Positions 1,970-24,146 of a stretch of 29,189 bases of DNA are shown here, in pieces; within the stretch, counting starts at the first letter, position 1; every line of letters begins with the position of its first letter. Source of the DNA: a virus; UHGV virus genome UHGV-0245401, one strand, 5' to 3'. Position numbers and translations under genes: made by a program. Below the pieces are notes generated by a model. That model did not search any database. It was not told the origin of the DNA and saw nothing but the letters and a program-made list of their open reading frames with translations.

Positions 1970-2611
1970 ATGGAAAAAGTTATAATTGAGCTTGATAATC
2001 GTTGGGAGTTAGCTGATTTCGCGGTCTTAACGAAAGAGTATTTGCAGCTATATGGTTTTTTTTATGGCCTAAAAGGAGGATCAAGAGGATATTCAACAAT
2101 GCCTTGGGAGGGTGGGCACAGTGTGGTGAACTTTTTTAGAGGGGCTTACAGTGCGACTCCACCAGATTTACGTCCTGTAGTGAAAAAAATTCAGTATGCC
2201 TCTCCTGGCTTTATTGAATTGTCTGCTCTTATTGATATCTCTTGGCAGATTGCTGAGTTAGTTACTGCTGTTGGTGGAAGTATTCTGGCTGCCAACAAAG
2301 TTTACGATCAGGTGATGCGTACATATCGACAAAGAGAATGGGCAAAGTTGAAATCAGAGAAGCTGCGTATACAGAATCAAATTAAAGAGATTGAACTTGT
2401 TTCTGACGCAGTTAAATCACTTGAATCTGTGATGGCACTTAGTGAAGAACAACGTAAAAACTTGGTTCAACTATCGGGGGCAGATGAACTGGTTCAGTTA
2501 AAGATACTTTTGGCTGTTTACCGACGGTTATCTCCTCTTGTTGAGTTGCAAAACAGCGGGAAAGCTAATTTTTCTGCTGGGAAAAATAAAAATTTAAAAG
2601 CGTCCGATTAA
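1970..2611 (+). CDS. Hypothetical 213-aa protein of unknown function, an AT-rich moron between ogr and attP
   Basis: Uninterrupted 213-codon ORF in a visibly AT-rich island. GGTGG Shine-Dalgarno-like motif about 7 nt upstream of the ATG, with TATACT (-10-like) at 1926-1931. The C-terminal half is rich in K/E/L/Q heptad-like sequence and there is a hydrophobic stretch around aa 80-110. No family recognised. Confidence 0.65.
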   Translation: MEKVIIELDNRWELADFAVLTKEYLQLYGFFYGLKGGSRGYSTMPWEGGHSVVNFFRGAYSATPPDLRPVVKKIQYASPGFIELSALIDISWQIAELVTAVGGSILAANKVYDQVMRTYRQREWAKLKSEKLRIQNQIKEIELVSDAVKSLESVMALSEEQRKNLVQLSGADELVQLKILLAVYRRLSPLVELQNSGKANFSAGKNKNLKASD

Positions 2612-2619
2612 ACGGACGC

Positions 2620-2856
2620 TGAACGATGTGGACGCTATGTGGACAGCGGTTGACATAAATCCATTTATATCATCAGGTTAGGTGCTTTTTTGTGACACCA
2701 TCCCTGTCTTCCCCCACATGATGTGGGGGTTTTTTTTATCAATTACTTACATGCAATCAAAAGTAAAAACAGGTACTTATCGAAAGCTGTAAGGGTTTGG
2801 AGCGGTTTCAAAATTTCTTGAGTGTGGACACTATGTGGACACTCAGAGGGGGAAAT
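2620..2856. other. Putative attP region with integrase arm-type repeats (TGTGGAC-N4-TGTGGACA at 2627-2645 and 2823-2841)
   Basis: Two tandem TGTGGACA-type direct repeats flank about 170 bp directly downstream of the int 3' end. They resemble the arm-type Int sites I recall for P2, but the P2 core sequence itself is not present. Confidence 0.5.
2709..2738 (+). terminator. Hairpin plus T-run (CCCCCACAT-g-ATGTGGGGG-TTTTTTTT); terminator-like, possibly part of the att core
   Basis: Perfect 9-bp inverted repeat followed by eight T residues on the + strand. Confidence 0.5.
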
Positions 2857-3867
2857 TTATAACGTCACTCCGCCTTTTAGTGGATTCAGAGCGACGGCAT
2901 TTTGCAGATAGTCAGGCGCAAGGTGCGCATAGGCCATCGTCTGCTGAATGCTCGCATGTCCCAGAATCTGTTGCAGTGCGATTATATTGCCCCCATTCAT
3001 CATGAAATGGCTTGCGAATGTATGCCGCAGGATATGGGTTGCCTGATTGGGTGGTATATCAGGTTTCACTCTGCGTAAAATCCCGCAAAATTTCTCATAA
3101 TCAACTTTGAATAATTTGGCGCTGGCCTCCTCTTTAACTTTTTTCTCCAGTTCCTCAGAAATCGGCACGGTTCGCTTTTTACCGTTTTTGGTTTTCAGGA
3201 AGGTAACCCTGCAATTTGTAATCTGTGCTGGTTTTAGCGTGGCAACTTCCGTCCATCTTCCTCCAGTGCTCAGACATAAAAGCGCGACAAGTAAGTCATC
3301 ACCAGCCAAAACATTTAACAGTTTTTCGATTTCTGCTTTTTCCAGGAACGTCATTTCAGGGTTGGCCTCCGCCAGTGGCGGCAGTCCGTGAATTGGGTGT
3401 TGCCCGGAAAATTCATCCAATTGAATTAATTTTGTGAACATGCCGGATAATCGGTACATGTCACGGTTTATCGTTGCGGCACTGATACCATCACGTAGTC
3501 GCATGGAACGATAATCCATCAAAGCCCTTTTGCTCATCCTGTTCACTGGTATATCACCTATGCCGCTGATGGTTTTGAGTAGATGATTAAACTCTTTTGT
3601 TCCATGCTCGTGGTTTTGCCCGTGATATTTCCACCAGATGTCCAGCAACTCACTCAAAGTCCGGCGGTCTGCTCGCTGGCCTCCCCATTCTTTCTGACTG
3701 GCATTGGCGATTGTGTATCGCTCAAATGCTAGTGCTTCAGCTTTTCTTTCGAATTTCCTGCGGATGCGTTTTCCGTCGCGACCGCGAGGTCTAATGTCCA
3801 CTTCATAGCGACCATCATCGAGCTTCTTAATTGCCATAAGAAAGCCCTCCGGCGCTGTATTCACCAT
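2857..3867 (-). CDS. int: Tyrosine integrase (336 aa)
   Basis: C-terminal catalytic region …ATHILRHTFASHFMMNGGNIIALQQILGHASIQQTMAYAHLAPDY… is typical of the tyrosine-recombinase R-H-R-Y fold. Position between attP and repressor C matches P2. Confidence 0.92.
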   Translation of the reverse strand: MVNTAPEGFLMAIKKLDDGRYEVDIRPRGRDGKRIRRKFERKAEALAFERYTIANASQKEWGGQRADRRTLSELLDIWWKYHGQNHEHGTKEFNHLLKTISGIGDIPVNRMSKRALMDYRSMRLRDGISAATINRDMYRLSGMFTKLIQLDEFSGQHPIHGLPPLAEANPEMTFLEKAEIEKLLNVLAGDDLLVALLCLSTGGRWTEVATLKPAQITNCRVTFLKTKNGKKRTVPISEELEKKVKEEASAKLFKVDYEKFCGILRRVKPDIPPNQATHILRHTFASHFMMNGGNIIALQQILGHASIQQTMAYAHLAPDYLQNAVALNPLKGGVTL

Positions 3868-3906: not shown

Positions 3907-4200
3907 TTATCCAATCCTTTTCTCGGAGTGGTTGGACTCTGTTGACTCTGGCCCAATGTGCGCGAGAGCCGGTGCGATTTGTCCTGCGTCCGGCGCGGTT
4001 TTATCTGTCATAAGCCATAAAGCATATTTTTGGAATGTGGGATGCATAGTGATTTTTAGCAAAGCTGTGCCACCGGGTTCAAAGTTTCCTCCTTCATATT
4101 TTTTAAGTGTGCTTAGCGGTAACTCTATGATTTCACAGAATTTTGATTGGCTTAGCCCTTCAGCCTCACGCAAGGCCTTAATCTTTTCGCTTAATTTCAT
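3907..4200 (-). CDS. C: Immunity repressor C (97 aa)
   Basis: Small ORF immediately upstream of int on the same strand and divergent from cox. Sequence (…GQIAPALAH…) and position resemble P2 C. Confidence 0.8.
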   Translation of the reverse strand: MKLSEKIKALREAEGLSQSKFCEIIELPLSTLKKYEGGNFEPGGTALLKITMHPTFQKYALWLMTDKTAPDAGQIAPALAHIGPESTESNHSEKRIG

Positions 4201-4321
4201 TTGACATGGTGCCTATATATGGACTAAATTCCCTCAAAACTGGAACCTATATAGGTTCCATTGATTTGAGAATAAACCAGCGTCTAAACGGTTTTGAGTG
4301 GTTTAGAAAGGGCTGGATCCT
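4201..4321. promoter_or_regulatory. Immunity switch region with divergent early (Pe) and repressor (Pc) promoters and operator repeats
   Basis: TTGACA at 4201-4206 with a 17-bp spacer and CTAAAT as a candidate rightward promoter. Repeated CCTATATA(T)GG motif at 4212-4222 and within the perfect 20-bp palindrome TGGAACCTATATAGGTTCCA at 4241-4260. Confidence 0.5.
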
Positions 4322-4609
4322 ATGAGGGTACCATATATGGACGCTGAAAATTATGTGATTCAGTATCCGCTTGATGCGGTTCATGTGGATAAATTTGCTG
4401 ATTTATTAGGGAAGCCAAAGACAGCCGTCAGTGAAATGGTGAAGGCAAATAAATTACCAATTATTGAATTGCGTGATCCTTGCAAACCGAAGGCTCGTGC
4501 CGGTGAAAAATGGGTTTTCATTCCTGAGTTTAATCGCGCTGTACGTGAGGCGTTTTATAACCGACCGGTTGAACAGCGTGATGCATGGCTTTTGTGGATG
4601 GGGTTGTGA
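4322..4609 (+). CDS. cox: Cox-like excisionase and early-operon regulator (alternative start at 4337)
   Basis: First gene of the rightward operon, about 90-95 aa, with a C-terminal …RDAWLLWMGL like P2 Cox. Confidence 0.75.
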   Translation: MRVPYMDAENYVIQYPLDAVHVDKFADLLGKPKTAVSEMVKANKLPIIELRDPCKPKARAGEKWVFIPEFNRAVREAFYNRPVEQRDAWLLWMGL

Positions 4610-21457: not shown

Positions 21458-22614
21458 CAGTGAAATACTACGCCATTCTGACTAATCAGGGCGCAGCACG
21501 GCTGGCTAACGCGACGATGCTCGGCAGTAAGCTGAATCTGACGCAAATGGCCGTTGGTGATGCGAATGGTGTCTTGCCGACACCAGACCCGGCACAGACA
21601 AAACTGATTAACCAGAAACGCATCGCGCCGCTGAATCTTCTGAGTGTTGACCCGAACAACCAGAGCCAGATTATTGCGGAGCAAATCATCCCTGAGAACG
21701 AGGGCGGATTCTGGATCCGTGAGATTGGGCTTTATGATGATGAAGGCGTACTCATTGCGGTGGCGAACTGCCCGGAAACGTACAAACCGCAGTTGCAGGA
21801 AGGCAGTGGTCGTACCCAGACTATCCGCATGATTCTGGTTGTCACGAATACCGAAGCTATCACGCTGAAAATCGACCCGTCGGTGGTACTGGCGACCCGT
21901 AAATACGTGGATGATGAAGTCCTGGAATTAAGGCTGTATGTGGATGACCAGATGAGAAACCACATTGCCGCACAGGATCCTCATACCCAGTATGCGCAGA
22001 AACATAATCCGACATTTACCGGAGAACCAAAAGCGCCGACGCCTGCCGCAGGAAATAACACCACGCGGATTGCGACCACTGCGTTTGTTCAGGCCGCTAT
22101 TACCGCTCTGATTAACGGTGCGCCAGCCACGCTGGACACACTGAAAGAAATTGCCGCAGCCATTAACAATGACCCGAAATTCAGTACCACCATTAACAAT
22201 GCGCTGTCAGGTAAGCAGCCACTGGATGAGACGCTGACTCATTTGAGTGGAAAGGATGTAGCTGGTCTTCTCGCATACCTTGGTTTGGGAGAAGCGGCAA
22301 AACGGAATGTGGGAACAGGGGAAAATCAGATACCTGATATGTCATCATATGCATCAGGTTCAGGCTGGCGAAAAATGCCAGATGGTTCAATTGAACAGTG
22401 GGGACGAATTAGTTTTCCTGGTGAACACGGGCCTGTATCCGCCAATGTTTCATTCCCGATTCCATTTACACAGACACCGGGCATTGTAATTGTGTGCGAT
22501 GGTGGTTTCGGGGGCGGGAATATGTGGGGGGCGACCAACTGGAGCACTACCGGCTTCATAGCTCACTGCAATTATGGTCTTGAAGGTGGTGCGTTTTTCG
22601 CTAAGGGCTGGTAA
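21454..22614 (+). CDS. H: Tail fibre protein gpH (386 aa): conserved N-terminal part plus a variable C-terminal tip encoded inside the invertible segment
   Basis: N-terminus [42 protein letters not shown]… is the conserved P2-family H domain. The C-terminal ~115 aa lie beyond the crossover site at 22268-22293. Confidence 0.88.
22268..22293 (+). other. hix/gix-like 26-bp inversion crossover site inside H (TTCTCGCATACC-TT-GGTTTGGGAGAA)
   Basis: Two 12-bp half-sites with 10/12 dyad symmetry around a central TT. Its 3' 14 bp are identical to the inverted partner at 24093-24118. Confidence 0.65.
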
Positions 22615-23057
22615 TGATGAAATATCTGTACGTAAACAACCTGGCATATCCTTACGAACTTCAGTCTCTTTATGTTGAAAAAGGTGAATGGCCTGAAGAA
22701 AAAGGTGTTGATATAGACGAAGTAATTTTCAGGGAATATTTCTATGACACACCACCAGAAGGAAAATACAGATGTGTTGGAGAAGATGGACTGCCTGCAT
22801 GGGCAGATATTCCTCCACCAACACGTGAAGAACAAATTGCATCAGCCGAAACTAAAAAGCAGCAATTGATTAATCAGGCCAACGATTATATGAACAGTAG
22901 ACAATGGGTTGGTAAAGCGGCTATTGGTCGTCTGAAAGGTGAGGAACTGGCGCAATATAATTTGTGGCTGGATTATCTGGACGCACTGGAGCTGGTCGAT
23001 ACTTCCAGTGCACCAGATATTGAATGGCCTACTCCTCCGGCAGTTCAGGCCAGATGA
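22614..23057 (+). CDS. G: Tail fibre assembly chaperone (Tfa, P2 G-like), paired with the currently expressed fibre tip
   Basis: 147 aa with a C-terminal Tfa signature …LWLDYLDALELVDTSSAPDIEWPTPP…. AT-rich 5' half. Confidence 0.85.
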   Translation: MMKYLYVNNLAYPYELQSLYVEKGEWPEEKGVDIDEVIFREYFYDTPPEGKYRCVGEDGLPAWADIPPPTREEQIASAETKKQQLINQANDYMNSRQWVGKAAIGRLKGEELAQYNLWLDYLDALELVDTSSAPDIEWPTPPAVQAR

Positions 23058-23640
23058 CATCCGGCGCGGTGCTGGTATCTGTTGCCGTCACCGCGTCAAT
23101 GTAATCCAGCACCGTGTTAAGTCGGCTGGTTTCTGCCTGCGTCAGATTCCGTCCGGCCCGTAATTTCAGTTGAATCAGACTGATGGAAGCCATTGCAGTA
23201 TCAATCAGCGACTGGCGTTGTGCTTCTGCTGCATCTACTGCGGCGCTATGCTGTGCATCGGTATCCGTCACCCATTTCTCACCATCCCATTTATCGTATG
23301 GTGTTAACGGGGCGATAGTGGTTGTATTATCAGGGTAATCACCCGGAGCTGTGATTTCTTTTGATTCTCCTGTTTCGGTGCTAAAGACGATTTCACCGCG
23401 ATGGTCTGGCACATATTCCCATGAGTTAAAATCTGCAGAACGGCAGATTGCATAACCAGCCTTATGTGTAACTGGTGCATCTAAACAAGAACATGCCGGG
23501 ATACCGACGCCAACCGTAAGATATTCAGTTGATGTGGAAATATATTCCCGCGTTTCTCCGTTGTAGTTGTAAACGGTAATGAAGCCAGCCTCTGTGGCAA
23601 ATCCGTTTTCATCCAAAGTGATTTTTTTTGTGGTCATCAT
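23029..23640 (-). CDS. Alternative tail fibre assembly chaperone (Tfa') on the opposite strand inside the invertible segment
   Basis: 203 aa with a C-terminal Tfa signature …LNTVLDYIDAVTATDTSTAPDVIWPELPEE. Convergent with G and overlapping it by 29 bp. Confidence 0.8.
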   Translation of the reverse strand: MMTTKKITLDENGFATEAGFITVYNYNGETREYISTSTEYLTVGVGIPACSCLDAPVTHKAGYAICRSADFNSWEYVPDHRGEIVFSTETGESKEITAPGDYPDNTTTIAPLTPYDKWDGEKWVTDTDAQHSAAVDAAEAQRQSLIDTAMASISLIQLKLRAGRNLTQAETSRLNTVLDYIDAVTATDTSTAPDVIWPELPEE

Positions 23641-24146
23641 GCTGCCCTTACAATGTAGTTAAATGCAATGTTACGTGGCCTTGTTTCTGCTGATGTTCTT
23701 GCACTCCTGGATAAATCAAGTGTCACACCATAGTAACTAAATGCATTACCAGTTGATGGAGCGGCATATTTAACCCCAGAACTAGAACCAACATTAAAAA
23801 CTCCAGATGCTGAGGAAGCTGACCCCATAGTGTTATCAATCAGAGAACCCGTAACATTTTGCATAGCGTCAAGTTGTTCGCTTAATAAAGCGCGTCCACT
23901 ATCAACATCACGCCCGTCATCCCAGCCACGAATAAATTCACCTCGTAAATCAGGCAATTTATTTGTCGGATAAGCCTTTGCCAGTTCCGGGTATTCTTCA
24001 GCAGAAAAAAACGCACCGTTGCATTTCAGCCAGCCTGTTGGCGGAGTGGTGGAAGGCCACGGAACAGGCACGCCAACGGGTAATGCCGAACCTTCTCCCA
24101 AACCAACGTTTAAGAAAATGCAGAGATTACGGCTAACTGGCATCAT
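23637..24146 (-). CDS. Alternative tail-fibre C-terminal tip (Hv'), promoterless in this orientation
   Basis: …LPDLRGEFIRGWDDGRDVDSGRALL…RPRNIAFNYIVRAA resembles variable tail-fibre tips of Mu/P1-type invertible systems. Its 5' end carries the partner crossover site in the same frame (…GLGE…) as in H. Confidence 0.7.
   Translation of the reverse strand: MMPVSRNLCIFLNVGLGEGSALPVGVPVPWPSTTPPTGWLKCNGAFFSAEEYPELAKAYPTNKLPDLRGEFIRGWDDGRDVDSGRALLSEQLDAMQNVTGSLIDNTMGSASSASGVFNVGSSSGVKYAAPSTGNAFSYYGVTLDLSRSARTSAETRPRNIAFNYIVRAA
24093..24118 (-). other. hix/gix-like inversion crossover site, inverted partner of 22268-22293
   Basis: The minus strand reads TTTTCTTAAACG-TT-GGTTTGGGAGAA. The right half is identical to the site in H and the left half is a degenerate copy. 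Confidence 0.6.

Follow-up and report, generated by a model that had tools for sequence, protein, structure and literature searches.

A predicted attP of the Wφ/L-413C integration type in a P2-like phage genome and its chromosomal target between cpxP and fieF

The 29,189-bp window (the whole stretch of DNA analysed) contains, next to an integrase gene, two pairs of direct TGTGGAC repeats that enclose a hairpin followed by a run of T residues. Such an arrangement raises the question of whether the locus is the attachment site of a temperate phage and, if so, to which place in the bacterial chromosome it is matched. The gene order of the window is that of the P2 family, with B and A lying further along, past cox, and the sequences closest to it are Peduovirus genomes. 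With a probability of about 0.95, a P2-like (Peduovirus) temperate phage has its attP at 2627-2841, and this attP belongs to the Wφ/L-413C integration type; none of the results obtained speaks against this reading. The phage is predicted to insert exactly in the cpxP-fieF interval of the host chromosome. As judged from sequence, the attP, the integrase, and the chromosomal target are those of Wφ and L-413C and are already known; the link of the core with the CpxQ sRNA, the interval of strand exchange, and a conserved second IHF consensus are modest additions to the picture of this attP. The features discussed are collected in Table 1.

Table 1. Features of the attP region and of the neighbouring genes (positions in the 29,189-bp window)
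Feature	Position	Strand	Description
D	365-1528
ogr	1611-1829
ORF213	1970-2611	+	extra ORF, 213 aa
P arm	2627-2645	+	two direct arm-type Int repeats, TGTGGAC-GCTA-TGTGGACA; full sequence TGTGGACGCTATGTGGACA
IHF-like site, P-arm side	2668-2680	+	TATCATCAGGTTA, one mismatch to WATCAANNNNTTR; putative binding site
Core	2694-2740	+	47 bp shared by attP and attB, GACACCATCCCTGTCTTCCCCCACATGATGTGGGGGTTTTTTTTATC
Strand-exchange interval	~2696-2720		putative; from the segregation of A/C at 2721 and the variants at 2694-2695
Hairpin + T8	2711-2737	+	copy of the cpxP/CpxQ Rho-independent terminator, co-directional with ogr and ORF213
IHF consensus, P' side	2737-2749	+	TATCAATTACTTA, perfect, across the right core edge; putative binding site
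Core-P' spacer	2750-2822		presumed Cox (excisionase) binding region; best candidate 2791-2813
P' arm	2823-2841	+	two direct arm-type Int repeats, TGTGGAC-ACTA-TGTGGACA; full sequence TGTGGACACTATGTGGACA
int	2857-3837	-	tyrosine integrase, 326 aa; Pfam Int_N and Phage_integrase domains
C repressor	3907-4200	-
cox	4337-4609	+	Cox-family excisionase and switch protein, 90 aa; Pfam Phage_Cox, E = 1e-23

Arm sites, core and prophage junctions

The pattern TGTGGAC-N4-TGTGGACA occurs in the window in only two copies, the P arm and the P' arm, separated by 177 bp (2646-2822). With the TGTGGACNNNNTGTGGACA pattern no third match is found in the window even when two mismatches are allowed (0.08 expected), and none of 100 shuffled sequences contains two or more matches. 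The window comprises five exact TGTGGAC heptamers, four of them in the two arms, and no further TGTGGACA-like arm-type site with at most one mismatch is found between 2600 and 2860. All the arm repeats have the same orientation, two on each side of the core, and agree with the published consensus of P2-type arms, tgTGGaCa (PMC3448106). In an alignment the P and P' arms correspond column for column to the annotated P-arm and P'-arm sites of P2 Int, which bears out the resemblance to the P2 sites pointed out in the first-pass annotation of this DNA. Both arms are unchanged across six aligned phages of the Wφ type, and the distance from the core to the P' arm is constant (81-83 bp) in 25 distinct core+P' sequences coming from phages, IMG/VR contigs, and lysogens of several genera. 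By these comparisons the TGTGGAC repeats are P2-type Int arm sites.

The same annotation placed the core between the arms and recommended a search for a matching attB and for attL and attR in lysogens. A comparison of 2612-2856 with 5,426 complete E. coli genomes locates the core precisely, as the prophage junctions split the window exactly at 2694-2740, and these 47 bp match at 100% the cpxP-fieF interval in most E. coli genomes. None of the 5,426 genomes covers at least 80% of 2612-2856 in one place. In prophage-free genomes 2694-2740 is found alone, between cpxP and fieF (attB), while in lysogens attL comprises 2694-2856, with cpxP on the left and int next, and attR comprises 2400-2740 followed by fieF; the attL matches start at 2694 and extend to the right, and the attR matches stop at 2740. 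The flanks, compared in a table and in an alignment, follow the order host-core-host in attB, phage-core-phage in attP, host-core-P' in attL, and P-core-host in attR. The P-side junction (attR) with the flank present in the window is found in about 786 of the 5,426 complete genomes and the P'-side junction (attL) with the present flank type in 530 E. coli genomes, so several hundred E. coli lysogens show the expected junctions. The precision of the junctions in so many natural lysogens lends indirect support to the predicted activity of Int/IHF-dependent recombination at this site.

The prophage of strain MNCRE44 relates the window to a complete genome. Its two core copies enclose 29,236 bp, i.e., 29,189 + 47, and the prophage is identical to the core-permuted window except for one SNP and one inverted segment of 1.83 kb. 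Hence the window represents a complete phage genome, circularly permuted and with an intact attP, and can be identified as a 29,189-bp Peduovirus genome of the Wφ integration type. The cpxP-fieF interval is known to be occupied by the Wφ prophage of E. coli W (PMC3032704) and by a 31-kb prophage in an O157 strain (PMC7609406). A tRNA or tmRNA gene as the integration target is ruled out, as none was found in the window.

The core as the 3' part of CpxQ

The hairpin CCCCCACAT-G-ATGTGGGGG at 2711-2729, followed by T8 at 2730-2737, was scored by a consensus scan as an intrinsic terminator on the plus strand, and the RNA of a 61-nt stretch around it folds with an energy of -19.7 kcal/mol. The hairpin together with T8 differs by one loop base from a part of the annotated ncRNA cpxQ of MG1655. 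The earlier guess that it is the 3' terminator of a host gene can thus be made specific: the gene is cpxP, and its terminator doubles as the 3' end of the CpxQ sRNA. According to the RefSeq annotation, cpxQ codes for a 58-nt ncRNA and lies at 4106330-4106387 of MG1655, immediately after cpxP. The core covers the 3' 44 nt of CpxQ, including the terminator, while the full 58-nt sequence is absent from the window, its 5' 14 nt (TTTTCCTTGCCATA) being replaced by phage sequence. Since attL retains the host 5' 14 nt joined to the core, both CpxQ and the cpxP terminator are regenerated there. CpxQ is an RNase E-processed, Hfq-dependent sRNA derived from the 3' UTR of cpxP and is exceptionally conserved in enterobacteria (PMC9438474). 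A full-text search of an incomplete literature collection found no papers joining CpxQ with prophage integration.

The central part of the core is found in at least 120 Enterobacterales stretches in a scan of one genome per species. Among the matches listed, a P2-type arm site lies directly beside the core in 11 cases, including Yokenella, Citrobacter, Kluyvera, Pseudocitrobacter, and Escherichia sp. The target consists of the 3' three-quarters of CpxQ, an sRNA so highly conserved that one core can serve in Escherichia, Citrobacter, Yokenella, Kluyvera, and other genera. Outside Escherichia, most attB sites end with TTTTTTTTGCC or GTC, not with ATC, and consequently their identity with attP is shorter.

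The neighbourhood of the core is atypical in some genomes, with either paired cores or phage-like flanks devoid of an arm. Two core copies situated about 1.8 kb apart occur, e.g., in Citrobacter amalonaticus P55 (1049-1086 and 2887-2924 of the locus compared), and Kosakonia arachidis also belongs to the atypical genomes. In other genomes the right flanks are phage-like (aataacttagaa...) and no strict TGTGGAC-N4-TGTGGAC arm is present. Such cpxQ sites may be remnants, or they may belong to other elements using the same site.

In Rfam, no family reaches its gathering score within 2400-3000. The best match is RF02628 (Hrs1, 'Hfq-regulated sRNA 1'), which matches the minus strand of the cpxP 3' UTR in the phage copy (2671-2737) as well as in the host (1472-1544 of the locus compared), with 31.8 and 44.5 bits, respectively, both below the gathering score of 56.4. 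The consensus of the RF02628 model has an A-run first and the hairpin after it. Hrs1 seems to represent a CpxQ homologue in reverse complement, and the family may have been built on the wrong strand. The matches to NsiR1 and anti-hemB were rejected as generic terminator matches.

The flanks and junctions described above bear on two other readings of the locus. According to one of them, the window would be a piece of a bacterial chromosome and the region an attL or attR junction devoid of an intact attP, a view to which the host-identical core lends itself, as does the fact that many 'phage' records of the Wφ/L-413C type in the databases are excised prophages starting at 2694. Its probability is practically nil, since in the window the core is flanked by phage DNA on both sides, with the P arm to the left of it and the P' arm to the right, and the host flanks ccttgccata (left) and ctcaatttgcc (right) are missing; moreover, the free phages R18C and L-413C cover 2612-2856 to the extent that no E. 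coli genome does, and the window length equals that of the prophage minus one core copy. The comparison of the flanks already refutes this reading. According to the other, the hairpin with T8 would be only the phage's own terminator for ogr and ORF213, its identity with the host being incidental and the crossover taking place elsewhere between the arms. The terminator is indeed co-directional with both genes, the hairpin of ORF213 itself (2599-2620) has no T-run on the plus strand, and 2711-2737 may well terminate the ORF213 transcript. Such a role is, however, compatible with that of the core and does not replace it, and the terminator that ogr has in P2 and Wφ is retained at 1841-1870. Given that the prophage junctions split the phage sequence exactly at the 47-bp block and that this block is identical to the host cpxP terminator, the exclusive-terminator reading is already refuted by the mapping of attL and attR, and we consider it very improbable.

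A different possibility concerns an additional function of the core. The phage copy of the CpxQ 3' module (2694-2737), a module that consists of a seed-containing single strand, the terminator hairpin, and a U-tail, might also be transcribed from phage promoters and yield a truncated, CpxQ-like, Hfq-binding sRNA via the 3' UTR of ORF213 and ogr, either from attP or from attR. The RNA would then perturb or mimic the host sRNA arm of the Cpx envelope-stress response, altering its regulon. As many as 44 of the 58 nt of CpxQ are contained in the window, with the terminator in sense orientation downstream of the phage genes, and a U-rich tract lies ahead of the core. Still, the 5' 14 nt of CpxQ are missing, and the phage-side flank varies among phages from other genera sharing this core; as this flank is not conserved, there is no sign that a 5' sRNA module has been selected for. 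The requirement of matching attB by itself fully explains the identity with CpxQ. We consider the expression of such an sRNA very unlikely, though less so than either of the two readings above.

Integrase, accessory sites and strand exchange

The integrase is encoded by a 981-nt gene annotated by RefSeq also in the identical prophage, and shows 98% identity to the Wφ Int and 52% identity to the P2 Int. The identity to P2 Int is unevenly distributed: it reaches 90% in residues 1-30, falls to 20-37% in residues 61-120, and is about 55% in the catalytic region. Residues 61-120 fall in the Pfam Int_N core-binding domain, and the core-binding domain is the variable part of the P2-type integrases (PMC3448106). 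A P2-like N-terminus combined with a diverged core-binding domain is the pattern expected if the recognition of the arms has been kept and that of the core changed. In line with what the first-pass annotation had proposed, the 27-bp P2 core (AAAAAATAAGCCCGTGTAAGGGAGATT) finds no match in the window with up to three mismatches, and the integration site, cpxP-fieF, is not that of P2. Its further proposal that the integrase has been retargeted holds in so far as the core-binding domain has diverged from that of P2 Int, but no new event is involved, since the core is identical to that of Wφ in 47 of 47 positions and Int in 98%; this is the known Wφ/L-413C type.

Two candidate IHF sites flank the core or overlap its edge. 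The one on the P-arm side aligns with the annotated IHF site of P2, and its consensus positions are kept in all six aligned phages. The P'-side site is the only perfect match to WATCAANNNNTTR in the window; as chance alone would give about one such match in a window of this length, the case for it rests on its position and conservation. TATCAA-N4-TTA is found at a constant position in 25 of 25 distinct core+P' sequences, and the host side of attB is devoid of this consensus. The core-P' spacer occupies a position equivalent to that of the annotated Cox site of P2. It occurs in two sequence types, one shared by the window and L-413C and the other found in Wφ, while the core and the arms are invariant in the six phages compared. 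Its segment 2791-2813 resembles 4287-4309 of the C-cox switch region in 17 of 23 positions (estimated E ~0.1), and a k-mer comparison of 2741-2822 with the switch region gave this one diagonal only, with no significant excess. Cox sites between 2750 and 2822 are tentatively presumed, mainly by analogy with P2.

By homology with P2 and λ, the binding of the proteins, the roles of IHF and Cox, and the chemistry of the reaction can be proposed as follows. Int would act as a heterobivalent tyrosine recombinase, whose N-terminal domain, near-identical to that of P2 Int, would bind the two tandem TGTGGACA repeats on each side, while the diverged core-binding and catalytic domains would act on the core, in which the cpxP terminator, and with it the 3' part of the CpxQ sRNA gene, is copied. 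IHF, bound probably at 2668-2680 and 2737-2749, would bend the DNA to give an intasome. Recombining with attB, which lies between cpxP and fieF and shares the 47 bp, attP would give rise to two junctions, attL with the order cpxP, intact CpxQ, P' arm, and int, and attR with the order late genes, ogr, ORF213, P arm, core, and fieF, and no host gene would be disrupted. Excision would be directed by Cox, presumably bound between the core and the P' arm.

The position of the strand exchange within the core can be narrowed down owing to natural variants. MG1655 has a C in the centre of the terminator loop where the phage has an A (position 2721 of the window), and its attB matches the phage core in 46 of 47 positions. 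Among the 530 E. coli lysogens with the present P' flank no C-allele attL is found at 100%; in the IMG/VR contigs the allele beside the P' arm is A in 20 cases and C in none, and no free-phage attP record matches the C-allele query at 100%. C is present in attR in many lysogens and in three IMG/VR contigs, and M217 has A in attL and C in attR. At the left end of the core, variants at 2694-2695 (AAC, ATC, TTC) occur in attR (on the P-arm side), in attP-like sites, or beside non-host left flanks, and the attL sites have the host GAC in this region. The simplest reading of these data is that A-allele phages entered C-allele hosts and that position 2721 stayed with the right-hand partner. Since 2721 travels with the right-hand flank, the crossover should lie to the left of it, and since the phage-specific variants at 2694-2695 are found in attR and the host GAC in attL, it should lie to the right of 2694-2695. 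Provided that the hosts already carried the C allele when the phage integrated, we infer that the strand exchange takes place within ~2696-2720, away from the palindrome centre. In C-allele hosts, such as M217, if it carried C beforehand, integration would then change the loop base of CpxQ. The interval could guide experiments on core recognition by integrases of the P2 family.

An overlap region at the centre of the palindrome (~2717-2723) was also considered and is unlikely, as C at 2721 is never found beside the P' arm and always accompanies the right flank.

Relatives and other features of the genome

The 47-bp core is identical in 47 of 47 positions in Wφ, L-413C, FSL SP-004, MET_P1_103_31, and 12474II. 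An attP of this type is reportedly described from 1999 onward, and the 47-nt Wφ core is said to have been first published in the papers on Wφ. Wφ (NC_005056) shares with the window the core, the arm repeats and their spacing, attB, and the gene order ogr-attP-int-C-cox. It differs in the type of the core-P' spacer, owing to which the whole attP is only about 87% identical to that of the window, and it lacks the 750-bp insertion that carries ORF213 and in the window separates the ogr terminator from the P arm. Its Cox and C repressor are 82% and 57% identical, respectively, to those of the window, and such a low identity of the repressor indicates a different immunity type. The Wφ integration module thus appears to be combined here with a different immunity type, which fits the modular exchange described for P2-like phages. 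The attP sites of L-413C, R18C, vB_YpM_50, P2_AC1, and FSL SP-004 are closer, being 96-99.6% identical to that of the window, and in the L-413C group the stretch 2624-2856 is essentially the same, including the spacer type; these phages have no ORF213 insertion either, and their similarity to the window ends at 2624. Wφ and L-413C are located at the same position of MG1655 and have identical cores (PMC3448106), and their attP, integrase, and target have been catalogued (PMC3448106, PMC3032704).

P2 (NC_001895) shows the same architecture, with the P arm, IHF site, core, Cox region, P' arm, and int in this order, and its arm repeats are nearly those of the window. Its 27-bp core is, however, unrelated, and its chromosomal site is a different one; in a three-way alignment the P arm, IHF site, and P' arm of P2 line up with those of the window, while the core columns do not. 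The two phages also differ in the location of the P' arm, which in P2 lies inside the int coding sequence and in the window downstream of the int stop codon. Other sites are used by 186 (tRNA-Ile), Fels-2 and SopEΦ (ssrA), and by P2-like prophages integrated at cyaR and rybB (PMC3448106, PMC3032704). In such elements, which integrate into the 3' ends of tRNA, tmRNA, or sRNA genes, the core likewise duplicates the 3' part of a small RNA gene together with its terminator, and attL restores the gene. Unlike in those elements, the target of the present phage is not a free-standing RNA gene but the 3' UTR-derived CpxQ, which shares its terminator with the cpxP mRNA.

P2, Wφ, and L-413C all lack the insertion of about 750 bp (1871-2623), which separates the P arm from the retained ogr terminator (1841-1870); its 3' end is found in 160 E. 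coli genomes. ORF213, the sole ORF of the insertion, has no match in Pfam or PHROG; the PADLOC model PD-T4-10_B recognises it (E = 1.3e-34), a partner A gene is missing from its vicinity, and ORF213 may be an anti-phage defence cargo. The 1.83-kb segment inverted with respect to the otherwise identical MNCRE44 prophage lies at ~22280-24109. In MNCRE44 it comprises tail-fibre and tail-fibre-assembly genes and is located beside a truncated 'recombinase family' pseudogene; by analogy, it looks like an invertible host-range segment of the kind represented by Mu G and P1 C.
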